Shown piece by piece: positions 15,040-63,242 of a stretch of DNA of 64,000 bases. The DNA is taken from the NCBI GenBank assembly GCA_016932695.1, contig JAFGCH010000001.1, forward strand, positions 22,420 to 86,419. The letters are read 5' to 3'. The translations under genes and the position numbers were made by a program. The notes below the pieces were generated by a model that was not told where the DNA came from, did no database searches, and worked only from the letters and a program-made list of their open reading frames with translations. Numbering within the stretch: position 1 is the stretch's first letter; each line of letters opens with the position of its first letter. The DNA is from Acidimicrobiia bacterium. Its GTDB lineage: Bacteria > Actinomycetota > Acidimicrobiia > Spongiisociales > UBA11373.

Positions 15040-15294
15040 TCAGTCCTCGGGGACGACGCTGACGAGGCGCCGGCCCCGGCGCTCCCCGTAGGCGACCCGG
15101 CCGCTGGCCGAGGCGAACAGCGTGTCGTCCCCGCCCCGGCCGACGTTGTCGCCGGGGTGGATGCGGGTGCCGCGCTGGCGCACCAGGATGGCGCCGGCCT
15201 TCACCTGCTGCCCGTCGAAGACCTTGGGGCCGAGGCGCTTGGCCTCCGACTCGCGACCATTCTTGGTGGAACCGCCACCCTTCGTCTTCGACAT
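15040..15294 (-). CDS. rpmA: 50S ribosomal protein L27
   Basis: [31 protein letters not shown], a canonical L27. Confidence 0.9.
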
Positions 15295-40966: not shown

Positions 40967-41017
40967 GAGCGTGATTGAGGTTACCGCAGCACCGGTGAAT
41001 GAAGGAAGGCAGCACGG

Positions 41018-43855: not shown

Positions 43856-44923
43856 TCAGGGCCGGGGATGAGCGGCGAAGAACTCCCACAAGAGGGCCGA
43901 GGCGCCGACCGCGTCGGTGGTCCGCCCCCACAGGCTGGTATCACCCGACCCGGGCCAGCCGTGGCGCCCGCCCTCCACCCGGTACAGGACCACGTCGGCG
44001 TTCGCTGCGCACCCGGTCCAGGAGCGCAACCCCACGTCGGCGGCGACATCGCCCACGACGGGGTCTGGGGCGCATCCGTTGCGCTCCACCCAAGCGGCGA
44101 CCACTCCCTCCACCGCCGGGAGGATCTCGCCCACTCCCTCGTAGGGCACGATGGGATCGGCGCTGCCGTGGATGGCGACCACTGCCACCGGCAGCACCGG
44201 TTCGCAGGGCCCGCTCGGGTAGGCGGCGGCCACCGGACCTACCGCCGCCACCAGGTCGGCGGCATCGCAGGCCAGGCGCGCCGCCATCCCGCCGCCGTTG
44301 GACATGCCGGCGGCGAACACCCGGCCGGGGTCGACGGGCACCGCCGCGCTCACCAACGCCACCAATTCACGCACGAAGACGACGTCCTGGTCGCCCTGGG
44401 CGGGGCTGGAGAGCCAGCGGCGCGGGAAGCCGGTACCGGCCGGATAGACCACCACGAAGCCGTGCTCCTCGGCCAGAGCGGACATGCCCGAGGTCTCCTC
44501 GATCTCCTCGGGAGAGCGGGTGAAGCCGTGGAAGACCAGGACCAGAGGAGCCGGGCCGGCCACCGACTCGGGGACCACGACGATGGCCCGCCGCAGCAGC
44601 CCCCCGGAGGCGATCTCCACCTCGTAGCGCCCCGGGCCGTTTCCCAGCCCCGAGCCGGCTGCCGGCGGGGGTGCGGTGGTCGTCGTGGTTGTGGCCAGGG
44701 TCGTGGAAGGGCTGCTGGCCGTGGTAGTAGCAACCGTCGTAGTAGGGCTGCTGGTCGGGGGGACGGTTGTCGAGGTAGACGTGGTCGGCCCGGTCGAGAG
44801 ATCCCCCGGGTTCGAGGCGGCGGAGGGCTCGCCGGCGCCGCCGCAGCCGGCGGCGGCCAGGACGGCTGCCAGCAGCCAGACGGCCATGATCACGGGGCGA
44901 CGCGACGGAGCGAGGGGATTCAC
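43856..44923 (-). CDS. Lipoprotein esterase of the PHB-depolymerase / LpqC-like alpha/beta-hydrolase family
   Basis: Signal peptide plus lipobox (AAGCGG), Thr/Ser-rich linker, then LVLVFHGFTRSPEE...GMSNGGGMAARLACD (GxSxG nucleophile elbow) ...IHGSADPIVPY. Confidence 0.6.
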   Translation of the reverse strand: MNPLAPSRRPVIMAVWLLAAVLAAAGCGGAGEPSAASNPGDLSTGPTTSTSTTVPPTSSPTTTVATTTASSPSTTLATTTTTTAPPPAAGSGLGNGPGRYEVEIASGGLLRRAIVVVPESVAGPAPLVLVFHGFTRSPEEIEETSGMSALAEEHGFVVVYPAGTGFPRRWLSSPAQGDQDVVFVRELVALVSAAVPVDPGRVFAAGMSNGGGMAARLACDAADLVAAVGPVAAAYPSGPCEPVLPVAVVAIHGSADPIVPYEGVGEILPAVEGVVAAWVERNGCAPDPVVGDVAADVGLRSWTGCAANADVVLYRVEGGRHGWPGSGDTSLWGRTTDAVGASALLWEFFAAHPRP

Positions 44924-47505: not shown

Positions 47506-49177
47506 CTAGAACCCGGCCAGGTGACGCCGCAGCACGTCCAGGCCCACGGCGCCGATCTCCAACAGGCGGGCGTGGAAGCCCTTCCGGTCGAAGGCCGCCC
47601 CGTGGCGCCGCTCGGCGGCGGCCCGCAGATCGCGGATGGCCTGCTGGCCCACCTTGTAGGCGATGGCCTGGCCCGGCCAGCCCAGATAGCGGATCGCCTC
47701 AGATTCGGCCACGTCCGGCGCCTGGGCGGCGTAGTCGGTGAGCATCTCCACCGCGATCTCGAAGCGCCACTCCTCCCCCGGGTGGAAGGGCTGCCCGGCG
47801 GGAATGGGGAGGCCCAGGTGGCACCCGATGTCGATGACCACCCGGCAAGCCCGCAGCATCTCCCCGGCCAGCTTCCCCATCAGGAAGTCGGGCTTCTCCA
47901 AGTAGCCCAGTTCCTCCATGATGTCTTCGGCATACAGGGCCCAGCCCTCACCGCTGCCCGGGTACCACACCAGCAGCTTCTGATAGCGGCTCAGGCGGGC
48001 CGGTGAGATCAACTGGATGCCGGCCTGCAGATGGTGGCCCGGGGAAGCCCTCGTGGTAGTTGGTGGTCACCTGATCGAAGAGCGGCACCGACTGCTGCTC
48101 GCCGATGGCGAACCACACCGTTCCAGGGCGGGCGAAATCCTCGCTGGGGCTCACGTAGAAGGCGCCCAGGGCGCCCCCCGGAGGGGCCAGCCTGACCTCC
48201 ACTCGCCGAATGGGCTCGGGCACATCGAAGTGGGCGCCCTGCAAGTCGGCCAGGGCCGTCTCCTGCCGGTGCTGCATGAATGCCCGGAACTCCTCCCGGG
48301 GCAGTGCCCGGGCCGAGTCCTCCGCCAGCAGGCGCATGACCTCCGACCGGCCCGCCTCGGGCCGGATGGCGGCGGCGGTCTCCTCCATGCGGTCCAGTAG
48401 GCGAGCGATCTCCCCCCAGCCCCACGCGTAGGTGGCGCGCAGGTCGAGGGTCGTCCCCAGGAACCGACGGGCCAGCCGCTCGTACCGCTCCTCCCCGACC
48501 CCGTCGGTCTCGGCGGCCGACGGCAGGTAGTCCTGCTCCAAGTAGTCGCCCAGGGACCCGAACGCCGCCCGCGCCGCCTCGATGCCCGCCGCAATGCGGC
48601 GCCCCAGGGCCTCGTCACTCAGGTCGGCGGCCTTCCAATCGCTCGTCAAGCGGCGTAGTGAGGAGACCTCGCCGGAGGCGTGACGCGCCTGGCGCGCCCC
48701 CTCCGCCGCCTGGCGGCGCGCCGCCGCCAATCCTTGCCGCCGCCCCTCCTCGAGGGAGCGCCGGTACGCCTCGGCCGCTGCCGGCAGGCCCTCGAGGCGG
48801 GAGGCCACCGCCTCCCAATCCTCCCGGGATTCCTTGCCCATGTGCTCGAAGACATCCCGCAGGGTCTGCAGCGGCGAGTCGATGTTGTTCAGATCGCGCA
48901 GGTGCTCGGAGGTGCCGAAGCGGCTCAACTCGTCCTCGATGGCGGCGCCGGCCACCTCGGCTGCCAGCGCTCCCCAGGGATCGCTCCCGGTGTCGGCAGC
49001 GCGCACCCGGTCGAGTTGTCCCTCCAGCGCGCTACGCCGCCTCTCCGCCCCGGCGACGCTGAAGTCGTCCCAGAGGTGGTCGTAGCCCCGGATCCCCGCC
49101 ATGGTGGCCAGCGTGGGCGACAGGGCGGCGGTCTCTTCCACGAGAGCGTCACAAACGGCGAAGATGTCCTCGGGCAC
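47506..49177 (-). pseudogene. DUF885-family (metallopeptidase-like) gene interrupted by a single-base frameshift
   Basis: Two adjacent ORFs (47948..49177 and 47506..48012) share one family. The upstream ORF ends ...NYHEGFPGPPSAG. Shifting frame at about 48036 (one extra G in GGTGGCCCGG) restores HEGFPGHHLQAGIQLISPARLSRYQKLLVWYPGSGEGWALYAE. Confidence 0.6.
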
Positions 49178-50517: not shown

Positions 50518-50964
50518 TCAGCGCAGCCCCGGCAGGGGCACGAACACCCCGCCGGGACGGGTCAGCGCATCGACCAGGGGGGCGATCGCCACCCACGCCA
50601 CCAAGACCACGACACCGGCCAGGACTACCCCGCGCAGCGCCGCCGTCCACACCCGCCGCGACGGCTTGAGCCGGAACGACCCCCGCCGCCAGGGCAGCCA
50701 GTAGCCCAACAGCCCCAGCGGGAGCTGAGCGAAGCCGCTGCTGCCCCCGACCGCCAGCTGGCCCCCGGCCCAGATCGCCCCGGCGGCGATCTGGCCCAGG
50801 GCGAGGACCCCCACGCTGAGCTGGCCCACGGCTACCACGCCGCGCGCCAGTTGCCCGACGGCGATCACCCCCGTGGCCCCTTGCCCGAGAGCGATCACTC
50901 CCGTCGGCATGGCTCCTATCGCGATGAACCCCACCGGCTCCACGCCTACCGAGAACCAGCGCAT
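50518..50964 (-). CDS. Small membrane protein with tandem decapeptide repeats (xGV[IV]A[LV]GQ[LG]A)
   Basis: ATG at 50964 gives MRWFSVGVEPVGFIAIGAMPTGVIALGQGATGVIAVGQLARGVVAVGQLSVGVLALGQIAAGAIWAGGQLAVGG: five consecutive repeats, then a second hydrophobic segment. Confidence 0.45.
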   Translation of the reverse strand: MRWFSVGVEPVGFIAIGAMPTGVIALGQGATGVIAVGQLARGVVAVGQLSVGVLALGQIAAGAIWAGGQLAVGGSSGFAQLPLGLLGYWLPWRRGSFRLKPSRRVWTAALRGVVLAGVVVLVAWVAIAPLVDALTRPGGVFVPLPGLR

Positions 50965-51104
50965 GGCCTGCAAGATAGGGCATGGACCGCCCCCGCGACG
51001 GCCACCCGCGGCCCGACCTGGGCAGGCCCAGGCGCCGGCACGGACTAATCTCGCCTCGCCGGGTGTCCCCCGGCCACCCACGCTTCACGTCGAAAGGCTC
51101 GCCC

Positions 51105-51977
51105 GTGCCCTTCCCGCCCGCCCCCCAGGGAGGCTTCACCGAGGACCGCGTCGTCTGGGTCTTCGGCCATCCCCGCTCCGGCACGACCTGGCTGGGCCAG
51201 CTACTCACCGACGGCCTCTCGCTGAAGATGTGGAACGAGCCCTACCTGGGGCAGTTCCTCAACTTCAGCAACCTGCTGCGCGAGAACGAGCCCAAGCGCT
51301 ACGAGGACCCCACCTTCTGGATGTCCGACCCCCAGGAAGAGAACTGGCGGGCTTCTCTCAACCTCTTCTTCATGGATGTCATCGCCCGCCAGGGCGGCCC
51401 CGCCGCCGGTTTCGGCGGCCTGGTGGTCAAAGAGCCCAACGGCACCGTGGTGTCCCCCCTGATCCTGCGGGCGATGCCGCGGGCCAAGGCCATCTTCATG
51501 CTGCGCGACCCTCGCGACGTGATCGCCTCGCTGATCGACGCCCGCAAGCCGGGCTCGTGGATGGACGAGCGGCTCACCCAGGAGTTCGACCGGGGCAAGA
51601 TCGTCAAGCAGTCGATCCGGCGCTTCGAGCGGATCGCCGAGGTGCTGGCCGAACTGGAGGCCGTCGCCCCCGGGCGCTTCTACGAGATGCGCTACGAGCG
51701 CCTGCGCGCCGACACCTTCGCCGAGATGCGGCACCTGGCCCACGTGCTCGACCTCCCCTGCGACGAGGCCGTCTTGCGCAAGGCGGTGGAACGCCACGCC
51801 TACGAGCGGATCCCCGAGGAGCGCAAAGGCCCCGGCAAGTTCGTGCGGACCGCCCGTGTCGGCGGCTGGGCCGAGGAACTGGAAGCGGAGGAGGCCGCCG
51901 CCATCCACCGCCGGCTGGGCACCTTCCTCGAGGCTCGCGGCTACCCGGTTCCGCAAGGGTCGCCGCGAACGCCATGA
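51105..51977 (+). CDS. Sulfotransferase (PAPS-dependent), family A
   Basis: GTG start 8 nt after AAAGG. 5'-PSB motif VWVFGHPRSGTTWL; 3'-PB motif IFMLRDPRDVIAS; C-terminal FVRTARVGGW. Confidence 0.7.
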   Translation: MPFPPAPQGGFTEDRVVWVFGHPRSGTTWLGQLLTDGLSLKMWNEPYLGQFLNFSNLLRENEPKRYEDPTFWMSDPQEENWRASLNLFFMDVIARQGGPAAGFGGLVVKEPNGTVVSPLILRAMPRAKAIFMLRDPRDVIASLIDARKPGSWMDERLTQEFDRGKIVKQSIRRFERIAEVLAELEAVAPGRFYEMRYERLRADTFAEMRHLAHVLDLPCDEAVLRKAVERHAYERIPEERKGPGKFVRTARVGGWAEELEAEEAAAIHRRLGTFLEARGYPVPQGSPRTP

Positions 51978-52009
51978 CCGCTCTCGGGCCAGTCGCCGGG
52001 GCCGCGCCG

Positions 52010-52770
52010 TGCTGATCACGGAGCACTTCGTCTTCGTCCACATCCCGAAGACCGGTGGGGACTTCATTCGCCGGGTCTGCCTAAAGCACCTGCCCCCGGA
52101 TTCGGTAGTGGCGCACCACATCGCCAAGCACGGGCGGGATACCGAGATTCCGGGGCCCTACCGCGGCCTCCCCCGCTTCGCCCTAGTGCGCAACCCTTGG
52201 GACTGGCACGTCTCCTGGTTCCACTACCTCATGGGCTCGGGCCGGCCCGAGGAGCACCGCGATCGGGTGCGGGTCATGAACCCCTGGTTCGTGACCTTGA
52301 GCGACGGCTTCCGCGCCGACTTCGGCACCACGATGCGCCGGCTCTACGACCCGGCGGTGGCGGCTTCCTTCTCGCCCCAATCGGTGGTGCGCGCCGCCGC
52401 CGAGCAGGAAGTCGACCTGCTGACCCTGCACCTGCGCCGCCAGACGGGGGCCAGCGAGGCCGAGGGGCGGCTCACCATGGGCCGCTTCGAGGACCTACGG
52501 CGGGACTTCCACCACTTCCTCGCCGCGCACAACGTGGAGATTCCCGAGGGCTTCCGCCGGGACCTCTACGAGCGCCCACCGATCAACCGGAGCCGCCGCT
52601 CTCGGTTCCAGGACTACTACGACCCGGAACTGCGCGGCATCATCGGCCGCTTCGCCGCCGGCACCATCGCCCGCTACGGCTACTCGTTCGAGGACGACGG
52701 CGCCGCGGCCCACGATGCCGACCCCGCCACCGGGGCGGGAGGGCGGGGCGGCGGCCGCCGTCTATCCTGA
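52010..52770 (+). CDS. Sulfotransferase, Sulfotransfer_2-like (carbohydrate sulfotransferase type)
   Basis: FVFVHIPKTGGDFI and RNPWDWHVSWFHY match the HIPKTGG / RDP-type motifs of carbohydrate sulfotransferases. Confidence 0.65.
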
Positions 52771-52796
52771 CCCGCACCCCGCCGACCGGAGGAGCG

Positions 52797-54533
52797 ATGC
52801 CCGCCGACCCTGCAACCTCCGGGGAGAGCGCCGCGGCCCCGCTGCTGATCCTCGGCGGGCACCGCTCCGGAACCTCCCTGGTCTCCGGCCTCTTCTGGCA
52901 TGCCGGCCTGCACATGGGGGAGCTGCTGCCCGGTGGGCCGGACAACCCCCGCGGCTTTTTTGAATCGGTGCAAGTCCTGGCGGCCCATCGGGCCCTGCTC
53001 GCCGCCCAGGAGCGCGACTGGACCTGCCCGCCGCACCGCCTGGACCCCCACACCTGTGATCTCGGCCCGCTGGCCGAGGTGATCCGCGACCTGGCCGCTC
53101 GGGGAAGGCCCTGGGGGGTGAAGGACCCGCGACTGCTCTTCCTGCTGCCCGCCTGGGTGGAGATCCTGCCGGCGATGCGCCTGATCGGCGTGCTGCGCCA
53201 TCCCGCCTCCGTGGCTGCCTCGCTCACGGCCCGCAACGGCTTCGCCCCCCCACATGCCCGCGCCGTAGCCGACGCCAATCTCACCCGCCTAGCCGCCCTG
53301 CAGCAGGCGCTCGGCTTCCCGGTGCTGGACTACGACGGCCCCGGGGAGGCCTTGCTCGCCGGGGCGCGTTCCGCTGCCCGGGCCATGGGGCTGGAGTGGG
53401 ACGAGGCTGCCGCCGCCGCTCTCTTCGACCCGGGGCTGCGCCATCAGGCCGCCCGCGGGCCCGGCGGGCCGGCCTACGACGCCCTTCTGGCGGCGGCGGC
53501 CGAGACGCCCGCCCTGAGCACCTACCAGGCCTGGGAGGTGGCCACCGCGTTGGCCGCCCTGCCCGATCGGGCAGACGAGGCGGTGCCCCTCGCCATCGGC
53601 CCGGCCTTCCTGCGGAGGCGGGCAGCCCTCTGGGGCTTCCGTGGCGAGTTCGGCCCGGAGTTGGGCAGAGTCCTCGAGGTGGCTCCCCCCGGAGCGCCGC
53701 GAGAGCCGCTTCTCGACGGAGTCGACCGCGCCGAGATCGACCTGGCGGTCGGGGAAGAGGAAGGCGAACAGAAGATCGCCGATCCCGTCGCCCGCTACAG
53801 CCATGTGCTGCTGACGGGCATCGCCGAGACCCTGGATCGGGTCGGCCTCACCGCCCTGCTCTCCCGGCTCGGCGCGGCGACTACCTCCGACGCCGTAGCG
53901 CTGTTCGACGACTTCGTCGTGGAGGGGATGACCCTGCCCCCGGTCAAGCGCTGGGGGCGGCTCAGCGCCACGACCTCCCGCCGCGGGCCTCTGCACCACC
54001 ACCACCTCGCCGAAATCGAAACGGCCGCCCTGGAAGCCGACTGGCTGGTGGGTGAGGTAGCCCTGAGCTCCGACGGCCGCAGCCGGGTGCGCCTGGTGAA
54101 ATCGGCCCAGCGCCGCTCCCCCGGCTGGGTGACCTCGGCCGAGCGCCGGGCCACGCTGGCGATCCGCGACGCCCAGATCGAGTCGGGGCAGCAGCGTATC
54201 GCCGAACTGCAGGCCCACATCAGCCGACTCGGGAGTGACGCCGAGAAAGCAGCCGCCGCCCACGCCGCCTCCATCGCGGCCGCCCAGGCCGAGGGTCGCG
54301 CCCGCCTCGAGCGGGAGCGACAGCGCAACCGGATGGCCTACGACGCCCTCCTCAAGGAGAACGCCGACATCCGGCACATGTACCACGAGAAGATCGGGGC
54401 GTTGAAGGACGAGGTGCGCCGGCTGCGCCGGCTGCGCAGCGTCCGCGGCTGGCTCGGTTTCCAGGCGCGCCGCTTGAGCCCCTCGCACGTGGCCGCGGCT
54501 TTCCGCCGGCGCCGCCACCCCCGGACGGGGTGA
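52797..54533 (+). CDS. Sulfotransferase domain protein with long C-terminal coiled-coil
   Basis: ATG after GGAGG. N-terminal PLLILGGHRSGTSLVSGLF is the PAPS P-loop-like motif. The C-terminal about 150 aa are heptad-rich (...AELQAHISRLGSDAEKAAAAHAASIAAAQAEGRARLERERQRN...). Confidence 0.65.
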   Translation: MPADPATSGESAAAPLLILGGHRSGTSLVSGLFWHAGLHMGELLPGGPDNPRGFFESVQVLAAHRALLAAQERDWTCPPHRLDPHTCDLGPLAEVIRDLAARGRPWGVKDPRLLFLLPAWVEILPAMRLIGVLRHPASVAASLTARNGFAPPHARAVADANLTRLAALQQALGFPVLDYDGPGEALLAGARSAARAMGLEWDEAAAAALFDPGLRHQAARGPGGPAYDALLAAAAETPALSTYQAWEVATALAALPDRADEAVPLAIGPAFLRRRAALWGFRGEFGPELGRVLEVAPPGAPREPLLDGVDRAEIDLAVGEEEGEQKIADPVARYSHVLLTGIAETLDRVGLTALLSRLGAATTSDAVALFDDFVVEGMTLPPVKRWGRLSATTSRRGPLHHHHLAEIETAALEADWLVGEVALSSDGRSRVRLVKSAQRRSPGWVTSAERRATLAIRDAQIESGQQRIAELQAHISRLGSDAEKAAAAHAASIAAAQAEGRARLERERQRNRMAYDALLKENADIRHMYHEKIGALKDEVRRLRRLRSVRGWLGFQARRLSPSHVAAAFRRRRHPRTG

Positions 54534-54537
54534 CGCC

Positions 54538-56658
54538 GTGGTCCGGCCGCCCGTCGACGTCATCATCCCCGTCTACAACGGCCATGCCGCCGTAGCGCGC
54601 TGCCTGGAGTCGGTGCTGGCTCATACCTCCGGCGAGGGGGTGCGCCTGGTGGTGGCCGACGACGCCAGCCCCGATCCCCGCCTTCCCGGTCTGCTCTCCT
54701 CCTTCGCCGCCCGCGACCCGCGCCTCACCGTCGTGCGCCGGGAACAGAATCTCGGCTTCGTGCGCAACTGCAACCTCGCTATGGAAGCCGCCTCGGGCGA
54801 CGTGGTCCTGCTCAACAGCGACACCGAGGTCCCCGCCGGCTGGCTGGAGCGCCTGCGTGCCCTGGCCCACTCGTCGGATCGAGTCGGATCGGTGACCCCT
54901 CTCTCCAACAACGCCACCATCTGCTCCGTCCCCCGGTGGCTGGAACCCAACTGCTACCCGCCGGGGGTCGACCTCGCCTTGCTCGACGAAGTGGCGCGCT
55001 CCTCCGGGACGGGTGAGTGGCTGGAGATCCCCACCTCGGTGGGTTTCTGCGTCTACTACCGGCGGGATGCCCTGGAGGCGGTCGGCTGCTTCGACGAAGA
55101 GCTCTTCGGCACCGGATACGGGGAGGAGAACGACCTCGCCTGCCGCATGCGGGAGCGCGGCTATCTGAACCTGCTCTGCGACGCCCTCTTCGTGTGGCAT
55201 GAGGGCGGGGTCTCCTTTGCCGAATCCGGCAGCGGCGACCTGGCGGGCAACCTGAGCCGTATCACGCAGCGCTGGCCGCGCTACCACGAGGTGGTACGCG
55301 GCTTCATCCAGCGCAACCCGCTGTGGGGGGTGCAGGCTCGCTTCGGCCTCGAACTGCTGCGCCGCACCAAGTCCGATCGGCGCCGGGTGCTCTACTTGGT
55401 TCACCATCGCCTCTGGGCGGGGATCATCGGAGGCACCGAGCTGCACCTCAGCGACCTCATCGAGAGCCTGGGAGAGTGCCTCGACCCGGTTGTGCTGAGC
55501 TTCGACGATTCCGGGAGGGGGACGGTGCAATGGCGTCCCGATGCCACCGCCCGGCTCGAGTTCCCCCTCGACCTGGGGAGCGCCCCCGACCCGGCCTCCT
55601 GGCTGGAGCGCCTGCTCGACGCCGGCATCGACCTGGTGCACTTCCAGCACACCATGCGGGCCCCCCTGCCGGTGGTCGGCGCCCTGCTCGAGGCCGCGGC
55701 GCACCGGCAGCTGCCGGTGGCCTGGACCCTGCACGACTACTTCCCCCTCTGCCCGGGCGCGCAACTACTCGACGCCGCCGACGGCACCCCATGCACCAGC
55801 CTGGGTGAGGGCCCGGCCTGTGCCGGCTGTGAGGACCAGGCCCGCCGTCTGGCCGGCTGCCTGGTAGCCGAGTGGCGCGACACCTACCGCAGCCTCCTGC
55901 AGCGAGCGGACCTCCTCATCACCCCGTCGGCCACCGCCCGCGAGATCATCCTCGGCTCGTTCCCGGAGCTGGCGCCCCGCCTGGTAGTACGGCCTCACGG
56001 AGTAGCCGACCCCGGGATTCTCCCTCTCCCCCACGGCCCGGCCCGCGGCCGCGTCGCCGTGCTGGGCTACGGGGGCCGCCACAAGGGGGACCGACTGCTG
56101 GGCGACGTCATCGACGCCCTCGAGGGCCGGCAGGTCACCTGGCACCTGTTCGGCCGGGAGCGGTTCGGAAACGGCTCGCGCCGCAACGTGGTCCTCCACG
56201 GCACATACCGCCGCGAGGATCTGCCCGGCCTGCTGGCTGCCGCCGAGATCGACCTGGTCCTGCTCCTCTCCCCCTGGGCGGAGACCTACTCGTACACCCT
56301 GTCGGAGGCCTGGCGGCTCGGCCTCCCCGTGGTGGGCTCCTCCTTGGGAGCCATCGGCGAGCGCCTCGCCTGCCTGGGCGGCGGGGTGACGGTGGACCCC
56401 TGGGACCCGGCGGCCGTGGCGGCCGCCGTCGGCCGCCTGCTCGACGACCCCCAGGCTATGGCCGCCCTCCGCTCCCAGGCAAGAGCGATCGGCCCCACCT
56501 TGCCTTCGCTGCAGGACATGGCCGACGACTACGCCGTCCTCTACGGCGCGCTCGCCCCCGAGAGGCGCTCGCCCGCCCCCCATCCCTTCCCCGTGGAGCC
56601 CGACCCGGGCGAGATGCAGGGCTGGATGGGCTCCTTCCGGTCGCCGCTGCGCTTCTGA
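54538..56658 (+). CDS. Bifunctional glycosyltransferase: N-terminal GT2 domain fused to C-terminal GT4 (group 1) domain
   Basis: VDVIIPVYNGHAAVARCLESV...RLVVADDASPD (GT2 with DxD). The C-terminal half has a GT4-type Rossmann fold (...EAWRLGLPVVGSSLGAIGERL...). Confidence 0.75.
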   Translation: MVRPPVDVIIPVYNGHAAVARCLESVLAHTSGEGVRLVVADDASPDPRLPGLLSSFAARDPRLTVVRREQNLGFVRNCNLAMEAASGDVVLLNSDTEVPAGWLERLRALAHSSDRVGSVTPLSNNATICSVPRWLEPNCYPPGVDLALLDEVARSSGTGEWLEIPTSVGFCVYYRRDALEAVGCFDEELFGTGYGEENDLACRMRERGYLNLLCDALFVWHEGGVSFAESGSGDLAGNLSRITQRWPRYHEVVRGFIQRNPLWGVQARFGLELLRRTKSDRRRVLYLVHHRLWAGIIGGTELHLSDLIESLGECLDPVVLSFDDSGRGTVQWRPDATARLEFPLDLGSAPDPASWLERLLDAGIDLVHFQHTMRAPLPVVGALLEAAAHRQLPVAWTLHDYFPLCPGAQLLDAADGTPCTSLGEGPACAGCEDQARRLAGCLVAEWRDTYRSLLQRADLLITPSATAREIILGSFPELAPRLVVRPHGVADPGILPLPHGPARGRVAVLGYGGRHKGDRLLGDVIDALEGRQVTWHLFGRERFGNGSRRNVVLHGTYRREDLPGLLAAAEIDLVLLLSPWAETYSYTLSEAWRLGLPVVGSSLGAIGERLACLGGGVTVDPWDPAAVAAAVGRLLDDPQAMAALRSQARAIGPTLPSLQDMADDYAVLYGALAPERRSPAPHPFPVEPDPGEMQGWMGSFRSPLRF

Positions 56659-56732
56659 GAGGCACCCGGCCGCCTTCGGCTACCCTCCGCCTCGTGCCCC
56701 TACCCGCCGCAACGGGAGGAGACCCCCTCCCG

Positions 56733-57725
56733 GTGGATGCCGACCTGCTGCGCCGCCGGCTGGCGGTGATGGCCGAGATGACTCATCTCCGCCGCTTCGT
56801 GGTCATCGGCCGCGGGAAGTCGGGGACGACCTGGCTGAGCCGCATCTTCCGCTCTCATCCGGAGGTCTTCCTGCGCGGCGAGCGCAAGCTGGTGGAGAAG
56901 ACCGCCGACTACACCCCGATCTTGCGCCACCTGCTCGACCCGGGGACGATGGCGGCATGGGGGGCGCACTCCTCCTTCCGTCTGGGGCTCCAGCCCGAAC
57001 GCATGGGCCCCGAGCTGTGGCGCCTGGTGGACGACTACCTCGCCGCCGCCACCCTCGTGGCCACGGGCACCGAGGTGACCGGGCTGACCCACCTCGGCGA
57101 CAAGCTGGCCCTGCTCCACCCGGAGGATGCCGCCGCCATCCTCCCCCACCTCGATCGCGCCTACCCCGGCTACCGGGCCATCCACATCGTGCGCGACGGA
57201 CGCGACGTCGCCGTCTCGGGTTTCTTCCATGTGTACCGCAACCGGGCGGCTGAGGGCGACGAGCCGTCGCCGCTGGTCCGCCGGGTGGAGAAGGTCTTGG
57301 AGGGAGGCGGTGGGAGGCTGTTCACCGATGAGCACCTCCGCTTCCGGGCACAGTCCTGGAACGACGTGACCACCGCCGTCGATGGCCTCCTGCGCCCGGC
57401 CTTGGGCGAGCGCTATCTGCTCCTGCGCTACGAGGACCTGCTGGCCGACACCCGGGCTTCCATCGAGCGCACCTTCGCGTTCGTAGGCGTCGGCTGCTCG
57501 CCCCAACTGGTGAGCGACATCCTCGAAGCCACTTCATTCAAGAAGATGTCCGGAGGCCGCCGGGCGGGCGAGCAGGACCCCAAGAGCGGGCGGCGCAAGG
57601 GCCAGGCAGGCGACTGGAAGAACTATTTCACCCCGCGCGACCGGGCCCTGTTCGCCGCCTTGGCCCAGCCCGCCCTCGAGCGCTTCGGCTACGAGCCCGA
57701 TGCCTCCTGGGCCGAGGCTCGCTGA
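56733..57725 (+). CDS. Sulfotransferase, Sulfotransfer_1 type
   Basis: VVIGRGKSGTTWLSRIF, IHIVRDGRDVAVS and RKGQAGDWKNYFT are all signature motifs. Start is GTG 56733 (after GGGAGGAG) or ATG 56769. Confidence 0.75.
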   Translation: MDADLLRRRLAVMAEMTHLRRFVVIGRGKSGTTWLSRIFRSHPEVFLRGERKLVEKTADYTPILRHLLDPGTMAAWGAHSSFRLGLQPERMGPELWRLVDDYLAAATLVATGTEVTGLTHLGDKLALLHPEDAAAILPHLDRAYPGYRAIHIVRDGRDVAVSGFFHVYRNRAAEGDEPSPLVRRVEKVLEGGGGRLFTDEHLRFRAQSWNDVTTAVDGLLRPALGERYLLLRYEDLLADTRASIERTFAFVGVGCSPQLVSDILEATSFKKMSGGRRAGEQDPKSGRRKGQAGDWKNYFTPRDRALFAALAQPALERFGYEPDASWAEAR

Positions 57726-57752: not shown

Positions 57753-59075
57753 TCACTCCCCGGCGCTCATCTCCTCCAAGTAGGTAGCGATCGAGGGCAG
57801 GCCGACCAGCTTGTCGTGGAAGAAGTTGTTCACCAGGTTGATCACCCGCTCGCGTGCCGCCTCCACCGCGGTGGAGCGAATCCCCCCCTGGCCCTCGCGG
57901 GTGAGGGTGTCGCGCAGTTGCAGGAGCAGGCGCACGATCTCCTCCTCCTCGGGGCCCTCCAGAGCGCGCAGCACGTCCAGGATGAGCGCGTCCACCTGCG
58001 CCAGCAGGGTGTCCAGGGAGATCGTGGAGCCCGGCTCGGCGGCCTCCTCCACAGTGCGCAGCACGGCGTGCACCTGGTAGAGCACGGCCGTCGGCTCGTC
58101 GAAGAGCTCGCGCAGGAAAGCGGCTTCCTCGTAGCGCCCGCTGAGGCGGAACACGTTGTACATGCGCTTGGCCGCCTTGCCGTAGTTGCGCGGCTCGTGA
58201 GCCACGTACTTGCGCACCTCGCGCTCGAGTTGGGCGACGTAGTCGGCGAGGGCGTCGGGAGACACGTGGCGCACCAGCTTGGAGAACACCGGCACCGACT
58301 CCGCCTCCAGGTAGACCTCCTGGAAGTAGGGGTCGAGGTAGCCATCGAGCGGGGTGATACTCCCGTCGGGAGCCTCCCAAGTGACGTCGAGCATGTTCGA
58401 GGCGTTGGCCACCTGACGGCGCACCGGGTCGGCCACCACCCAGTCGAGCTTGCACCACCCGGGGTCCGGGGCCACTTCGTCCCAGGTCACCTCCACCGCC
58501 TCACCCCCCGCCCCCTCTCCCGCCAGCCGCCCCGCCCGGATCTCGTCGGGCTTCCAGGCGATCGGCGTGCCCGCCCGGCAGAGACGCTCGCCGCGCCGCA
58601 GGTCCCGGGGGTAGTTGCCGAACTTCACCTCGATCAGCCGGTAGGTCTCGCCGGCGAGAGTGGCCAGGGCCTTCTCCCGCATCAGCTCGGCCAGTCGGCG
58701 GCAGGCTTCCTCCCGGGTGGGGGCGATGATGTTGACGCGCTCGAAGTAGTCGCAATCCCCCGGGTAGGTCTGGATCTTCGACTGCGCCGCCGACCCCGAC
58801 AGGGCCAGGGCGGTCTCCACCCCGGGAGCATCGTCGAAGCCCACCAGGCGGCCTACGGCCCGGAAATGGGCTAGATCCTCCGGGCTGAAGTCGAGCATGG
58901 AGACGCGGTGGCCGAACACTCCGGCGGCATGGTCCACCACCAACTCACCGCTGTCGGTGGCCGCCATCGCGCCCAGCCACTGCAGGGCGTCGGCCTCGTC
59001 CAACTCCACCCCGAGGCGACGCGCCGAAGTGAGGATGCGCTCGAGGTCGGCTCCGGGGGTGGGTTGCTGGGTCAT
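57753..59075 (-). CDS. Uncharacterised protein with Pol-beta-type nucleotidyltransferase signature and helical C-terminal half
   Basis: 440 aa. ALSGSAAQSKIQTYPGDCDYFERV fits hG[GS]-x(9-13)-DxD. The remainder is predicted helical. ATG overlaps the stop of the upstream exonuclease gene (ATGA). Confidence 0.4.
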   Translation of the reverse strand: MTQQPTPGADLERILTSARRLGVELDEADALQWLGAMAATDSGELVVDHAAGVFGHRVSMLDFSPEDLAHFRAVGRLVGFDDAPGVETALALSGSAAQSKIQTYPGDCDYFERVNIIAPTREEACRRLAELMREKALATLAGETYRLIEVKFGNYPRDLRRGERLCRAGTPIAWKPDEIRAGRLAGEGAGGEAVEVTWDEVAPDPGWCKLDWVVADPVRRQVANASNMLDVTWEAPDGSITPLDGYLDPYFQEVYLEAESVPVFSKLVRHVSPDALADYVAQLEREVRKYVAHEPRNYGKAAKRMYNVFRLSGRYEEAAFLRELFDEPTAVLYQVHAVLRTVEEAAEPGSTISLDTLLAQVDALILDVLRALEGPEEEEIVRLLLQLRDTLTREGQGGIRSTAVEAARERVINLVNNFFHDKLVGLPSIATYLEEMSAGE

Positions 59076-59823: not shown

Positions 59824-61116
59824 ATGAGATGGTGCCTCTTGATGGTGCCCTTGGCGCTGATGGGCTGCGCCTCTCCTCCCCTCGCCGGGCCCGCCCCCGC
59901 CGAGCCGATGCGCCTGCTGGTCGCGGGCACGGTCGATCTCTCCGGGCCGGCCGCCACGGTGGCTCGAGCCGATACGGACGGTCTCTTCCGCGAGATTCGC
60001 CTGGCCGCCCGGCGGGCGGATGTAGCCGTGGTGGTCGCCGCTACCTCGGGGGCGGCGGATCTCCTGGCCGCCGCCGGCTTCACCGCCGTGGCTTGCCCCG
60101 ACGAGGCGGGGCCCTCCGCTCTCATGCCGGCCTCCCCCGCCGCGGCATCGGTGCGCCTGCGCTGTGCCACCGGCCGGGGACTCGACCCGGCCCCGGCGAC
60201 CGTAGCGCCGTGGGCGCCCACCCTGCTGGTCTCGGTGGCGCCGGCGCCCCCGGGGTTCGCCCCGCCCCAGGCCGATCTGGTGGTGACCTCGGCCGGCCCC
60301 TCACCTGCGGCTCGGGTCGTCGGCTTTCTGCCGGGACACCTGAGCCTGGTGGTCTCCGGTCTCGGCTCCTTGCTCTCCCCCGATCCCACCGCCCCCGGCG
60401 CCCTGCTCGAGGTGCTCGCCGATGCCGAAGGCGTGGTCGCCTACCGCCTGGGCCGGGTCGCCCACCACGACTTCCGGGTGCACTTCTCCGGATGGGACCT
60501 GCCTCGCGGTGACGCCGTCCTGCTGGACGGGGAATGGTGGACGCTGGCCCGACCGGCCGATCCCGCCCCGGTACGTCCCCCGCCCGACGGACTCGCCTTC
60601 ACCTACGGCGACCTGGTGGCGGCTGCAATCGGCGACGCCACCGGCGACGGCCTTCTCGACCTCGCCGCCTCCTACCGCCACCCCTTCCGCCCCAGCACCC
60701 TCAGCGAGGCCCGGCCCGGCGTGGTGGGCATGGACTCCTTAGGCCGCAGCGCCCACCTGGGGGTCTTCACCCTCTCGGGCGAAGCGCTGTGGGCGGCCGG
60801 GTACATCTGGCGGCCCGTGGGAGACCTGGCGGCCTGCGAGGGAGCGGTCGCCCTGGCCTATACCGGCCTCGACGACCCGGCCGTGGTGGCCACCGGCGCG
60901 GCCGTGTGGCAGGGGCTGAGCCTGGAAGCCGCCCCGGAGCTCCCCGGAAGCGGCCGTCCCGGCTGTGCCGACGTGGACGGGGACGGCCGCCAGGACCCGG
61001 TGATCCTGGGCCGCGCCGGATATCTCACGCGAACCGCTTCGGGGGACCATACTTGGCGCGACACCTCCCAGGGGGATCACCCATGCGCCCCTCCCGCCGT
61101 CTGCTCGCCGTCCTGA
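59824..61116 (+). CDS. Lipoprotein with CapA-like N-terminal region and FG-GAP/VCBS-like repeat
   Basis: MRWCLLMVPLALMGCASP (lipobox); ...CADVDGDGRQDPVILG is an FG-GAP-like Ca-binding loop. Its 3' end overlaps the next gene's start. Confidence 0.45.
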   Translation: MRWCLLMVPLALMGCASPPLAGPAPAEPMRLLVAGTVDLSGPAATVARADTDGLFREIRLAARRADVAVVVAATSGAADLLAAAGFTAVACPDEAGPSALMPASPAAASVRLRCATGRGLDPAPATVAPWAPTLLVSVAPAPPGFAPPQADLVVTSAGPSPAARVVGFLPGHLSLVVSGLGSLLSPDPTAPGALLEVLADAEGVVAYRLGRVAHHDFRVHFSGWDLPRGDAVLLDGEWWTLARPADPAPVRPPPDGLAFTYGDLVAAAIGDATGDGLLDLAASYRHPFRPSTLSEARPGVVGMDSLGRSAHLGVFTLSGEALWAAGYIWRPVGDLAACEGAVALAYTGLDDPAVVATGAAVWQGLSLEAAPELPGSGRPGCADVDGDGRQDPVILGRAGYLTRTASGDHTWRDTSQGDHPCAPPAVCSPS

Positions 61117-63242
61117 TGGCCGGCGCGTTGCTCGCCGCTTGTAGCGGCGACTCCGCCGTGTTCACCACCACGACGACCACCACCGTGCCGACCACTACCA
61201 CTTCCCCTTCGACCACCACCAGCACCACCACCTCATCCACAACCACCACGCCACCCCCGTCGACGACTACCACGACGACCCTGCCCGGCGGGGAGCCGGG
61301 CGCGGTTCCCAGCGCCCTCCCCTCGAAGGCAGCCTTCGCCCCCTTCGCCGCGGTTCCCCTGCTCGACGGCACGTCCATGAGAATCCCCGACCAGCCCACC
61401 TCGCTGGACGACGTCTACTGGGAGTTCAAGGTCACCGATCCGGAGTACCCCGAGCCGCGCGCTCTGCGCGAAGACCTGGCGCGCGACGGCTTCGCCATCG
61501 ACGGTTCCTGGTCCAGCCAGGTGCTGCACACCATCTACTCGTACACCGCCCGTTACGCCGACGGCCCGGTGTACGTCACCACCGACGCCGGCTATCACGA
61601 GTGGCATCTGGTGTTCTCCAAGGCCCTGCGGGACACCGAGGAGCAGGTGCTCCTCCCCCTGCTGGAGGAGCTGGTCGGAGGGCTGCTGGCCGCCTCCACG
61701 GAGCCCGGCAACCCGCCCGATGACGCCGCCGCTCAGGAAGACGTCCGCCTCTACCTGCAGGCCGTCGCCACCATCCTGGGCCTCGACGCGGGGGTGATCG
61801 GCGCCCGGGCCACCGAGGAGGTCGGCCTGGTCGACCTGCACGCCGAAATGGCCGAGTCCCCGACGCTGGGCGTGGAGGTCGACTACACCCTGATGACCCC
61901 TCGCGGCCACTACACCCGGAGCGAGGGTCTCACCCGGTACTTCAAGGCCATGGCGATGTTGGGGGCGACGCCCTTCCCCATCGACGACCCCGATGCTCTC
62001 CGCCGGGCTTGGTGTCTGAGCTCTCTGCTCACCACCCGGCCGGCGCTCCTCGACGCCTGGGAGCGCATCTACGAAACGACGTCCTTTCTGGTGGGCGCCG
62101 CCGACGACTACACCCCGCGGGAACTGATGGCGGCGCTGGAAGCCGCAGGCGGAAGCAACGACGACGCTGCCATGGCTGCCGTGGGTGCCGCGCTGGCGGC
62201 CGTCCGCCCGGTGCTCATCGACGCCGAGAAGGCGTCGGTGCGCGCCATGGGGGCCCGCTTCGTGCTCGACTCGTTCCTGCTCGACCAACTGGTCCACCCC
62301 CAGGTGTGGCAGCGTCTCGAGGCTTCGGTGCTCGATGTCGCCGGCGCGATGGGATCCGACTGGGCCCTGGCCCAGCAGGAGGCGGCCGGCGTGCCCGCGG
62401 AGTACCCCGAGTACGGCGAACGCCTCACCGCCCTGCGCGACCTGGTCGCGACCCGTCCCCCGGCCGATTGGGGCGGCACGGTCTACGACGCCTGGCTCTA
62501 CGCCATCCTTCCCATGTGGCTCCCCCGCGGTGTCGAGTACCCCGATTACATGCAGACCGAGGCCTGGGCGGCTCGTTCCCATGAGGGGGGCTTCGGCTCC
62601 TATGCCGAGTTGAAGCACGACACCGTCCTCTACTCCAAGCAGGGTTTTGCCGAGGGCGACGAGCCGCTGCCCCCGGCCCCGCCCCGCCACTGGGTCGAGC
62701 CCGACCCGGTGCCCTTCGAGCGCCTGGCCGAGGCGGCCCGGCTGCTGCGCACCGGGCTGGCCGACCGGGCACTGCTCACCGACGAGACCCGCGACCTGCT
62801 CGACGGCCTCATCGCCATGGAGACTCGCTTCGGGCGCATCGCCCGCGACGAACTGGCCGGGCGCCCCATCTCGGCGGCCGACAACGACTGGCTGGCGGCG
62901 ATAGGCAGCGACTTCGAACTGCTATGGCTGCAGGCCGGAGACGGAGAGGCGGATTACCTGGGTGGCTTCGGTGACGACCCCGACAGCCGGGCCCCAGTGG
63001 TCGTGGACATCTTCTCCAATCCCTGGGATGCCCTGGAGATCGCCACCGGGGGCTTCGACACCCTGTACGTGCTGGTGCCCAACGACGAAGGGCACTTCCA
63101 GGTGGCCGTCGGGGCCGTCTACGCCTTCTACGAGTTCTGGGTGCCTCGCGGCGAGCGCCTCACCGACGAGGAGTGGCGGGAGATGCTGATGAACCGGGAA
63201 GCCCCGGACCGCCCGTCCTGGCTGGCCTTCCTCTACGAATGA
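61083..63242 (+). CDS. DUF3160-like lipoprotein with Thr/Pro-rich linker
   Basis: MRPSRRLLAVLMAGALLAACSG (lipobox), then TTTTTTTVPTTTTSPSTTTSTTTSSTTTTPPPSTTTTTT, then a large roughly 650-aa domain resembling DUF3160. Confidence 0.55.
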   Translation: MRPSRRLLAVLMAGALLAACSGDSAVFTTTTTTTVPTTTTSPSTTTSTTTSSTTTTPPPSTTTTTTLPGGEPGAVPSALPSKAAFAPFAAVPLLDGTSMRIPDQPTSLDDVYWEFKVTDPEYPEPRALREDLARDGFAIDGSWSSQVLHTIYSYTARYADGPVYVTTDAGYHEWHLVFSKALRDTEEQVLLPLLEELVGGLLAASTEPGNPPDDAAAQEDVRLYLQAVATILGLDAGVIGARATEEVGLVDLHAEMAESPTLGVEVDYTLMTPRGHYTRSEGLTRYFKAMAMLGATPFPIDDPDALRRAWCLSSLLTTRPALLDAWERIYETTSFLVGAADDYTPRELMAALEAAGGSNDDAAMAAVGAALAAVRPVLIDAEKASVRAMGARFVLDSFLLDQLVHPQVWQRLEASVLDVAGAMGSDWALAQQEAAGVPAEYPEYGERLTALRDLVATRPPADWGGTVYDAWLYAILPMWLPRGVEYPDYMQTEAWAARSHEGGFGSYAELKHDTVLYSKQGFAEGDEPLPPAPPRHWVEPDPVPFERLAEAARLLRTGLADRALLTDETRDLLDGLIAMETRFGRIARDELAGRPISAADNDWLAAIGSDFELLWLQAGDGEADYLGGFGDDPDSRAPVVVDIFSNPWDALEIATGGFDTLYVLVPNDEGHFQVAVGAVYAFYEFWVPRGERLTDEEWREMLMNREAPDRPSWLAFLYE

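Follow-up and report, generated by a model that had tools for sequence, protein, structure and literature searches.

We propose, with moderate confidence, that five adjacent genes (g1 to g5) of an Acidimicrobiia bacterium encode a cytoplasmic build-and-modify module for a Wzm/Wzt-type lipid-linked envelope glycan, in which g3 would act as a capping ruler and g1, g2 and g5 would sulfate the product. By analogy, the block resembles the known ruler machinery for O-antigen chain length, with sulfation replacing the usual cap. The five open reading frames lie co-directionally on the plus strand at positions 51105-57725 of the 64-kb stretch of DNA analysed here (the window), with intergenic gaps from g1 to g5 of 31, 26, 4 and 74 nt, exactly where a first-pass annotation of this DNA had placed five tightly spaced genes, and an independent Logan assembly for this organism yielded gene calls of the same lengths. 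A survey of related genomes for co-occurrence of the genes found the block kept in six related Acidimicrobiia loci, and pairwise dN/dS values of 0.15-0.49 across all five genes indicate that each is under purifying selection; together, these observations rule out a chance pattern. GC3 of the block genes (0.89-0.92) equals that of the remainder of the window.

The promoter of the block presumably lies in the 140-nt intergenic region (50965..51104) between g1 and a divergent gene for a 148-aa membrane protein, and a search of this region for a sigma-70 consensus found none, which carries no information at 70% G+C. No transmembrane segment occurs in any of the five proteins, as fits assembly at the cytoplasmic face, where PAPS is available. 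The earlier observation that the cluster holds no transporter or PAPS-synthesis genes extends to the whole 64-kb window, in which we likewise found no Wzm/Wzt, priming transferase or rml/sugar-nucleotide genes, and five related genomes also lack Wzm/Wzt, priming transferase, rml and PAPS-synthesis genes up to 10 kb from the block. In the window lineage the block is surrounded by housekeeping genes.

PAPS sulfotransferases are defined by a 5'-PSB loop with a conserved Lys/Arg together with a 3'-PB strand-turn-helix that holds Arg...Ser (PMC11625862). Motifs of both kinds occur in g1 (RSGTT/RDPRDVIAS), g2 (PKTGG/RNPWDWHVS), g3 (HRSGTS/RHPASVAAS) and g5 (GKSGTT/RDGRDVAVS), the PSB/PB residues of these sulfotransferase-type proteins are invariant in the family alignments, and every motif quoted in the first-pass annotation is present in the four translations. 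Judged by curated profiles, all matched above their gathering scores, g1 and g5 are clear members of the PAPS-dependent sulfotransferase superfamily, as had been expected. g1 (51105-51977, 290 aa) matched the Pfam families PF13469 (Sulfotransfer_3; 5e-22, 79.7 bits, cut-off 27) and PF00685 (Sulfotransfer_1; 1.2e-14, 54.8 bits, cut-off 22), and carries the 5'-PSB motif HPRSGTTW (within HPRSGTTWL). Its closest solved structure is a protein-tyrosine sulfotransferase (1.3e-7), the match to NoeE was very weak (14 bits, against a NoeE cut-off of 500), and homologues with 50-63% identity adjoin g3/g4 homologues in loci L010, L012 and L013. g5 (56733-57725, 330 aa) matched the Pfam families PF00685 (8.8e-27, 94.5 bits) and PF13469 (58.2 bits) as well as solved cytosolic sulfotransferases (1.6e-9), and contains the motifs GRGKSGTTW and RKGQAGDWKNYFT. 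Candidate starts of g5 are the GTG at 56733 and the ATG at 56769; the former has a ribosome-binding site, GGGAGGAG, 11 nt upstream and agrees with the gene call in L001. L018 lacks g5, an accessory gene, and g4 there directly adjoins the gene that follows.

The g2 protein (52009-52770, 253 aa; NCBI JW785_00370, Acidimicrobiia bacterium), with the motifs HIPKTGG and RNPWDWHVS, is more divergent. It returned no matches in Pfam or NCBIfam, with PF03567 (Sulfotransfer_2) absent even at E ≤ 10, yet 44 of 85 aligned relatives match PF03567, which is also carried by distant homologues; from these alignments we place g2 in a divergent sister clade of Sulfotransfer_2, without formal membership. A g2 family profile searched against the PDB matched SULT7A1 (1.2e-7), and the AF2 model (pLDDT 92) predicts a sulfotransferase fold, the top 50 Foldseek matches in the PDB all being sulfotransferases, albeit weak ones (E ≥ 3e-3, TM 0.3-0.47). 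The HIPKTGG type had been described as typical of eukaryotic carbohydrate sulfotransferases, which is half right, since g2 itself has no Sulfotransfer_2 match and many of its relatives are bacterial.

The g3 protein (52797-54533, 578 aa), preceded by a GGAGGAG ribosome-binding site, has four parts: a sulfotransferase-type head, a methyltransferase-fold domain, a helix of about 100 residues and a basic tail. The earlier description as a sulfotransferase with a coiled-coil tail thus needs correcting. The head (52839..53486, residues ~15-230) is a Sulfotransfer_3-type domain that scored 24.9 bits against PF13469, below the 27-bit cut-off, and 17 of the 21 family members matched this profile at E ≤ 1e-3 (best 1.3e-9), with P0141 at 31.9 bits. 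An hhalign comparison of the head with g1 gave a probability of 71% (E 3.7e-5) over a region spanning the PSB and PB motifs. Invariant or near-invariant positions of the head are R23, G25, T26 and S27 in the PSB (motif GGHRSGTSL), R134 and S142 in the PB, E56, and K109-D-P-R112. The middle domain (53514..54101, residues ~240-435) has a Rossmann-type, class I SAM-methyltransferase fold and a conserved H-x-H-L-x-E motif at residues 401-406. It had no match to the methyltransferase families of Pfam and no E/DxGxGxG SAM-binding loop, its glycine loop being non-canonical (EVAPPGA; DVVPEGG in orthologues) and unconserved in L010 (TWTITPNP), and it is probably non-catalytic or atypical.

The third part (54135..54437, residues 447-547) is a predicted coiled coil, modelled by AF2 as a single helix with pLDDT ~85-92 within a whole-protein model of medium confidence (pLDDT 73, 21 sequences); matches to coiled-coil families were weak and a heptad count gave no clear pattern. 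Its length differs among orthologues, with indels in alignment columns 700-760, which is the sole, and indirect, hint that the helix sets chain length. The tail (54438..54530, LRRLRSVRGWLGFQARRL...RRRR) has a net charge of +12 across its last 40 residues, contains Trp/Phe and shows an unremarkable hydrophobic moment, being basic without clear amphipathicity. It is kept in orthologues and in L013, appears in giant fused relatives as RLRNRRSVRFALGL...FRWVR, immediately ahead of GT2, and may be a membrane- or polymerase-docking element. Full-length relatives of g3 occur only in Acidimicrobiia, and in every case g3 either immediately precedes a g4 homologue or shares one polypeptide with it.

The g4 protein (54538-56658, 706 aa), whose start codon follows the g3 stop by 4 nt, combines a GT2 module (54547-55317, residues ~4-260) with a GT4/GT-B module (55426-56547, residues ~297-670) and is the proposed polymerase. 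Both halves of the expected fusion scored above the Pfam cut-offs, with matches to PF00535 (GT2; 1.1e-21, 77.9 bits, residues 8-115), PF13439 (Glyco_transf_4; 1.2e-8, 35.6 bits, residues 297-489), PF13692 (Glyco_trans_1_4; 3.3e-12, 47.3 bits) and PF00534 (Glycos_transf_1; 32.4 bits), but the DxD attributed to the GT2 domain is not a strict one: the nucleotide-binding motif is VVADDASPD and the DxD-equivalent position reads NSDTE. The family is large (E ≤ 1e-10 gives 2,770 homologues, many of which bear the name 'O-antigen biosynthesis protein' or carry fused methyltransferase domains) and typical of ABC-transporter (Wzm/Wzt) glycan clusters, as illustrated by a methyltransferase-GT2-GT4 protein of Comamonas beside WecA, Wzm and Wzt, and by L014 with Rml genes, WsaF_C, Wzm and Wzt.

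Elsewhere, these proteins are found fused to one another. In a 1085-aa protein from Planctomycetota (L006) a g3-type head (E 3e-11 versus g3) is joined through a short coiled coil to a C-terminal g4-type GT2-GT4 part (E 6e-85 versus g4; 34% identity over 649 aa). Further fused g3+g4 relatives are P0144, P0147, P0149, P0155 and P0178, and fusions of 1225-1702 aa run from a g3 module through a helical, charged spacer and the conserved tail motif to a GT2 and a GT-B domain. The order head-helix-tail is retained in split and fused g3 homologues alike, and proteins of 765 and 779 aa join g2 to g3. Among the 79 genome loci kept for the g3-type head, neighbours within 10 kb were g4-like in 24, Wzt-like in 24 and Wzm-like in 15. 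Wzm/Wzt genes adjoin homologous g3/g4 pairs in L010 (= L023, the 5.39-Mb chromosome of a sister member of the Acidimicrobiia), L012, L013 and L019. In the L010 and L012 clusters, homologues of g3 (full-length; 31% identity, E 1e-65) and g4 and a g1-like sulfotransferase are encoded together with Wzm, a methyltransferase, a multi-glycosyltransferase and a Wzt bearing a Wzt_C carbohydrate-binding module. L013 encodes a priming Bac_transf, glycosyltransferases, g4, a g1-like sulfotransferase, Wzm, Wzt, RmlCBAD and a 401-aa g3-like protein of head, coiled coil and tail, in which the methyltransferase-fold domain is dispensable and the spacer helix is kept. The Wzt of L013 is without a carbohydrate-binding module, so cap recognition would not be universal. 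The suggestion that multiply sulfated glycans or glycoconjugates are rare in bacteria was overstated at the gene level, given 14,328 representative relatives of the g3 head (E ≤ 1e-3) and more than 2,700 g4 homologues.

From the gene structures, family and fold assignments, fusions, neighbourhoods and purifying selection observed here we infer the sulfate transfer, capping, ruler function, sugar, export and product location that make up the proposed pathway. The soluble g4 would polymerise a lipid-linked chain, probably with two linkage types and possibly with rhamnose. g3 would dock beside g4 through its basic C-terminal region, its head held off by about 100 helical residues, and, as WbdD, WbbB and the O4/O7 terminators of Klebsiella suggest by analogy, the head would act at the distal non-reducing end once the chain is long enough; a terminal sulfate from the head would stop elongation and set chain length. 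Further PAPS-dependent sulfation of the same glycan would fall to g1, g2 and g5, with g2 probably part of the g3 head complex, and the priming transferase, the enzymes of sugar-nucleotide and PAPS synthesis and the exporter would have to be encoded elsewhere in the lineage. The first-pass idea that several PAPS-type sulfotransferases and a sugar polymerase serve one glycan is consistent with all of these findings, and the g3+g4 and g2+g3 fusions and conserved neighbourhoods strengthen the case for joint action.

Given four sulfotransferases, the g3 head could instead decorate internal residues, and a multiply sulfated polysaccharide in which g3 is a mere scaffold or decorating enzyme, all four sulfotransferases act internally and length is set otherwise has some appeal, since four enzymes of different families suggest several sulfation positions and internal sulfates are found in the known bacterial sulfated polysaccharides synechan and the capsule of Vibrio KMM 8419. 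We consider it unlikely nonetheless: a head-coiled-coil-tail protein before or fused to a polymerase is the terminator signature in every characterised case, and the spacer helix persists even in the minimal 401-aa form. Exporters point both ways, the Wzt of L010 and L012 having a Wzt_C module and that of L013 lacking a terminal-residue-binding module, and no sulfate cap has been described; our literature searches found no sulfate-capped bacterial glycan, and to our knowledge none is known.

That ~100-residue helix would also have no obvious role were the product a short sulfated glycolipid or cytoplasmic sulfated oligosaccharide made by five self-sufficient genes and never exported as a polymer. 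Mycobacterial sulfolipids, Nod-factor-type molecules and cytoplasmic methylated polysaccharides are the likenesses for such a product. The solubility of all five proteins and the housekeeping neighbours favour this explanation, as does the absence, in the window lineage, of nearby exporter, priming and sugar-nucleotide genes, but in sister Acidimicrobiia and in other phyla the homologues of g1, g3 and g4 form sets embedded in classical Wzm/Wzt clusters that also hold priming and rml genes, and we hold this explanation to be improbable. Least plausible by far is that the acceptors of some sulfotransferase-like proteins are proteins or peptides (tyrosine sulfation), or their donor something other than PAPS, with the glycosyltransferase unrelated in function. 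The g2+g3 and g3+g4 fusions physically join sulfotransferase-type domains to a glycosyltransferase, PSB and PB residues are conserved in all four proteins, and the gene contexts are polysaccharide clusters; set against this, the solved structure closest to g1 is that of a protein-tyrosine sulfotransferase, Sulfotransfer_3 takes in TPST/RaxST-type enzymes, and g2 and the g3 head fall below curated-profile thresholds.

If g3 is a capping ruler, the consequences, which rest on comparative genomics and predicted structures, reach beyond this block. The chain-ending groups known from ABC-transporter-dependent glycan pathways are methyl, methyl-phosphate and Kdo, and a sulfotransferase-type ruler head would add a new capping chemistry, joining bacterial glycan sulfation and chain-length control, so far separate fields. 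We suggest, tentatively and as something rather doubtful at present, that sulfation is an unrecognised chain-terminating chemistry of such pathways, with sulfotransferase-headed rulers capping lipid-linked polysaccharides with sulfate or a sulfated terminal sugar and so setting their length. Were this so, the cap would license export where Wzt has a carbohydrate-binding module, the capping-ruler family (split as g3+g4 here, fused elsewhere) would span Acidimicrobiia, Planctomycetota and other phyla, and monoderm-type Acidimicrobiia would possess a length-controlled, multiply sulfated envelope polymer. Bacterial sulfated polysaccharide pathways are poorly characterised and are sought for biotechnology, and a sulfotransferase head, coiled coil and GT2-GT4, split or fused, now offer a genomic signature by which to look for them. 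Acidimicrobiia are abundant, mostly uncultured bacteria of aquatic and soil habitats whose cell surface is essentially unknown, and the present comparisons point to a sulfated envelope polymer in this group.

Among known systems, NodH and NoeE (Nod factors) and mycobacterial Stf0 (sulfolipid-1) share with the block the PAPS-dependent carbohydrate sulfation predicted here, Sulfotransfer_3-type domains and an RxG-type PSB loop (PMC11625862), but act on small lipo-oligosaccharides or trehalose, without a polymerase, coiled-coil partner or Wzm/Wzt association. Closer in setting are the synechan xss cluster of Synechocystis 6803 and the capsule cluster of Vibrio sp. KMM 8419, in which sulfotransferase genes lie among surface-polysaccharide glycosyltransferases; the Vibrio polymer contains sulfated L-rhamnose and relies on an ABC transporter, rml genes lying nearby (PMC8205485, PMC11641403). 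Unlike the window block, both clusters include export genes, xss using Wzx/Wzy and the Vibrio cluster also holding cysNDC, and PMC8205485 and PMC11641403 describe no sulfotransferase with a coiled coil and none fused to a polymerase.

The architecture of g3 and its pairing with a multi-module glycosyltransferase match, by analogy, the terminators or molecular rulers of glycan assembly that depends on ABC transporters (PMC11231755), a likeness that the first-pass annotation had not noticed. All characterised systems of this sort carry their terminating enzyme on the far end of a coiled coil (PMC11231755); here, the predicted helix 447-547 sets the head apart from the polymerase-proximal end and g3 is coupled to g4 by the 4-nt gap and the fusions, the Wzm/Wzt exporter of such systems being absent from the 64-kb window and the 10-kb flanks in the window lineage. 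As in WbdD/WbdA (E. coli O9a, Klebsiella pneumoniae O3), an N-terminal catalytic head is followed by an extended helix and a C-terminus that would adjoin the polymerase, the partner is soluble and multi-module, and homologous g3/g4 pairs adjoin Wzm and Wzt-CBM genes; WbdD also holds a methyltransferase-fold domain (PMC11231755). The likeness is one of architecture rather than of direct sequence comparison, profile searches having given no WbdD-like kinase or methyltransferase matches. WbdD is a kinase plus an active methyltransferase, whereas g3 has a sulfotransferase-type head, and its methyltransferase-fold domain, which is dispensable in L013, shows a degenerate SAM loop; WbdA consists of GT4 modules and g4 of GT2+GT4; and the host here is a monoderm-type member of the Acidimicrobiia whose window lacks Wzm/Wzt. 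The fused g3+g4 relatives resemble WbbB (K. pneumoniae O12) and O7 ORF6 in their order of head, coiled coil and two glycosyltransferase modules, although the WbbB head is a Kdo transferase (GT99), the O7 head is a methyltransferase plus kinase, the glycosyltransferase families differ and in the window the parts are split over two genes. Some terminator orthologues stop after the coiled coil and others run on into glycosyltransferase modules, those of O7 occurring both with and without the C-terminal modules (PMC11231755), and the split and fused forms of g3 and g4 follow exactly this pattern.

The five genes lie on the forward strand of the window as g1 (51105–51977, 290 aa), g2 (52009–52770, 253 aa), g3 (52797–54533, 578 aa), g4 (54538–56658, 706 aa) and g5 (56733–57725, 330 aa), separated by 31, 26, 4 and 74 nt, and identical gene lengths were called in the Logan assembly of the same organism (L001). 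The g2 and g3 proteins correspond exactly to NCBI JW785_00370 and JW785_00375 (‘MAG: Acidimicrobiia bacterium’); an exact-protein look-up for g4 returned no record. None of the five proteins has a predicted transmembrane segment, and a promoter/terminator scan of the block gave nothing useful at 70% G+C. The block and the same flanking genes were found in six loci, comprising L001 and five related Acidimicrobiia MAGs (L002 and L015–L018), with 57–89% protein identity across the five MAGs and pairwise dN/dS values of 0.15–0.49 for all five genes. Since the block is kept in six loci under these dN/dS values, it is real and not a chance arrangement. The open reading frames, second assembly, six loci and dN/dS together confirm the group of sulfotransferases and a glycosyltransferase described in the first-pass annotation, all of whose quoted motifs were found in the translated genes. 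That annotation had also proposed a survey of related genomes for co-occurrence of the five genes, and the one gap in the six loci is g5, absent from L018 (Actinomycetota MAG M_DeepCast_400m), in which g1–g4 are kept at ~11637–15077 and g5 is cleanly lost; g5 is therefore dispensable to the core system.

Two other origins for the block were ruled out. A decaying remnant is incompatible with the dN/dS values and with intact reading frames in six genomes, whilst a horizontally acquired island is excluded by a composition matching that of the genome (G+C of ~70% along the entire window, GC3 of 0.89–0.92 in each of the five genes) and by syntenic housekeeping flanks in related genomes. In the window lineage the block is surrounded by housekeeping genes, the window also containing genes for LeuRS, Obg, RNase E/G, PBP2, MreBC, ValRS, ClpXP, trigger factor, RNase PH, a PilT-like ATPase, an amino-acid permease and a DUF885 protein.

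By profile and solved-structure matches g1 and g5 are unambiguous predicted sulfotransferases, g1 matching Sulfotransfer_3 (5e-22) and g5 matching Sulfotransfer_1 (9e-27) in Pfam, with g5 also matching solved cytosolic sulfotransferases (1.6e-9). Single-sequence searches of the PDB with g2 and g3 returned only noise, and g2 had no match in Pfam (to E = 10) or NCBIfam. Distant g2 homologues (22–30% identity over ~90% of the length) carry PF03567, 44 of 85 aligned relatives match it, the g2 family profile matched solved sulfotransferases in the PDB at 1.2e-7, and the top 50 PDB matches to the g2 structure model (pLDDT 92) were all sulfotransferases, with weak scores. The family alignment has little or no variation at H11, K14 and G17 of the PAPS-binding 5′-PSB loop or at R61-N-P63...S69 of the 3′-PB motif. 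Homologues, profile and structure model thus point to g2 as a divergent sister of Sulfotransfer_2. The earlier description of its HIPKTGG motif as typical of eukaryotic carbohydrate sulfotransferases was overstated: g2 itself does not match PF03567, and its relatives include many from bacteria.

The head of g3 (residues ~15–230) is Sulfotransfer_3-like, scoring 24.9 bits, just below the 27-bit cut-off, and 17 of 21 g3 family members match PF13469 (best 1.3e-9). An hhalign comparison of the head with g1 gave a probability of 71% and spanned both PSB and PB motifs, and the conserved residues are R23/G25/T26/S27 and R134/S142; the g3 family profile found nothing in the PDB. Assignment of the head as a P-loop kinase was rejected, since the loop sequence, RSGTS as in Sulfotransfer_3, has no Walker Lys and PF13469 is matched by relatives. 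Comparison of the g3 and g2 families by hhalign detected no relationship (probability 0.1%), and the two are therefore separate families. Residues 447–547 of g3 form one unbroken helix in the predicted structure, the length of which differs among orthologues, and over the final 40 residues, which include a conserved RRLRSVRGWL-type motif, the net charge is +12; crude heptad-register and hydrophobic-moment calculations gave no clear canonical coiled coil or amphipathic tail. Separately, a His-rich motif, LHHHHLAE (residues 399–406, window ~53991–54014), lies in the methyltransferase-fold domain directly after a low-confidence loop (residues 379–397). H401, H403 and E406 are invariant among orthologues, the L010 homologue (31% identity) has the motif in the recognisable form CHVHLDE, and a metal-binding or catalytic role is possible.

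Pfam describes g4 as a GT2 domain joined to a GT4-type GT-B domain. Of the candidates scored, 2,770 are g4 homologues at E ≤ 1e-10; ‘O-antigen biosynthesis protein’ is the source name of many, and many have methyltransferase domains fused at the N-terminus. Solved structures yielded no characterised homologue, the GT2 and GT4 matches all being generic. Gene fusions tie g4 to its neighbours. On a Planctomycetota contig (L006) a 1085-aa protein has an N-terminus similar to the g3 head (32% identity, E 3e-11), a short coiled coil and then a match to g4 over 649 residues (34%, E 6e-85), and is flanked by a Sulfotransfer_3 gene and a g2 homologue (48–49%), with divergent NDP-sugar genes alongside. 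An exhaustive search with g3 residues 1–440 yielded 14,328 representative relatives, among them proteins of 1225–1702 aa in which the order is g3-type module, charged helical spacer, tail motif, GT2 and GT-B domain. Two further proteins, P0136 (779 aa) and P0137 (765 aa), from Logan and ENA contigs, have a g2-type Sulfotransfer_2-like domain fused N-terminally to a g3-type protein and the shortest coiled-coil region of the family. These three kinds of fusion argue, at the level of sequence, that g2, g3 and g4 are parts of one machine. The first-pass interpretation was right in outline but overlooked the feature of chief interest here, an architecture with the head, helix and tail of g3 beside g4; its ‘rare in bacteria’ was an overstatement at the gene level given the numbers of g3 and g4 relatives.

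In other lineages homologues lie among export genes. A 5.39-Mb Acidimicrobiales chromosome (L010 = L023) and L012 (= L020) share the order Wzt (with a Wzt_C carbohydrate-binding module), Wzm, a multi-glycosyltransferase of 1002 aa, a g1-like sulfotransferase, a homologue of g3 over its full length (31% identity, E 1e-65), one of g4 (45–47%) and a methyltransferase. L013 has a priming Bac_transf, glycosyltransferases, a 401-aa g3-like protein consisting of head, coiled coil and tail only, g4 (51%), a g1-like sulfotransferase (63%), Wzm, Wzt and RmlCBAD. In L014 a g4 homologue occurs with Rml genes, a WsaF_C rhamnosyltransferase-type protein, Wzm, Wzt and a CW_binding_2 protein, in Comamonas koreensis (L011) a methyltransferase-GT2-GT4 protein with WecA, Wzm and Wzt, and the Wzm/Wzt(Wzt_C)/Rml/RgpF cluster of L008 and L009 contains a more distant homologue of g2. 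A genome scan for g3-type heads, using an 8-sequence alignment (A4) as query, gave 204 tblastn-confirmed matches, of which 79 loci were kept; within 10 kb, g4-like genes were detected at 24, Wzt-like at 24 and Wzm-like at 15 of the 79 in this tblastn survey of limited sensitivity. On an unclassified bacterial contig (L004, 1886–4186) a g2 homologue (59–60%) is followed by two transposase genes (Transposase_mut and IS110 family) and a sulfotransferase fragment, and the block appears disrupted by insertion sequences.

Several other genes of the window were also recorded. A 148-aa predicted membrane protein with Gly/Val/Ala-rich repeats (GVIALGQGATGVIAVGQLARGVVAVGQLSVGVLALGQ...; 50518–50964, − strand) is divergent from g1, has no Pfam match and keeps its position in all related loci (66–77% identity). 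A 440-aa protein without a Pfam match (57753–59075, − strand) is convergent with g5, from which 27 nt separate it, is 85–89% identical in related genomes and directly abuts g4 in L018; it was not found beside g3/g4 homologues of other lineages. The DUF885-family gene (47506–49177, − strand) is split by a frameshift near 48038–48042, the intact 557-aa L002 orthologue aligning to frame −1 (residues 1–381) and then frame −2 (residues 380–554), which is either a real pseudogene or a MAG assembly error. Two predicted secreted proteins or lipoproteins, one PHB-esterase-like (43856–44923, − strand) and one a DUF3160 protein (60534–63242, + strand), have long Thr/Ser/Pro-rich linkers (TTTTTTAPP..., TTTTTTVPTTTTSPSTTTS...), and such linkers are typical O-glycosylation sites in actinobacteria. 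A large protein (38654–41017, − strand) has an unusual mix of PKD domains, nine RTX calcium-binding repeats and a VanW domain.

What the analysis shows is limited to how the genes are built, the families and folds to which they are assigned, their fusions and neighbourhoods and the selection on them; from these we infer every biochemical step of the proposed mechanism. The g4 protein would extend a polyprenyl-linked chain at the cytoplasmic face, and the rml genes found with many homologous loci make rhamnose a plausible component. The g3 protein would oligomerise via its helix, its basic tail lying beside g4 and the membrane, and its sulfotransferase head, probably with g2, would reach only long-enough chains and sulfate their distal end; g1 and g5 would add further sulfates. 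The first-pass remark that no transporter or PAPS-synthesis genes lie inside the cluster holds for the whole 64-kb window, in which no exporter, priming enzyme, sugar-nucleotide or PAPS gene was found, nor were any found in related genomes up to 10 kb from the block. The window lineage either has the genes for these functions elsewhere or puts the module to a different use. Because of this absence, appreciable weight stays with two other readings, that the sulfotransferases decorate only and that the product is a non-exported sulfated glycolipid or oligosaccharide.

In ABC-transporter-dependent O-antigen assembly, the modules of the polymerase are arranged, together with a chain terminator, about a coiled-coil ‘molecular ruler’, with the terminator always at the coiled coil’s distal end; in WbdD the membrane-proximal C-terminal region recruits the WbdA polymerase, whilst WbbB (O12) and ORF6 (O7) carry terminator, coiled coil and glycosyltransferase modules on a single polypeptide, O7 orthologues being known both with and without the latter, and the carbohydrate-binding module of Wzt recognises terminated chains (PMC11231755). 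The g3/g4 pair and its fused relatives follow the same logic part for part, but the g3 head is of sulfotransferase type, whereas those of known rulers are kinase/methyltransferase or Kdo transferase heads. No paper tying sulfotransferases to WbdD-type rulers was found in the literature searched, which is weak evidence as most subscription journals lie outside it. Sulfated bacterial polysaccharide clusters with embedded sulfotransferases include those for synechan and a Vibrio capsule, the latter with sulfated rhamnose and ABC-transporter export (PMC8205485, PMC11641403). Sulfotransferase genes have already been noted in cyanobacterial ABC-type clusters. Given these known clusters, a sulfated bacterial glycan in general is not new; what is new is the ruler-borne sulfotransferase.
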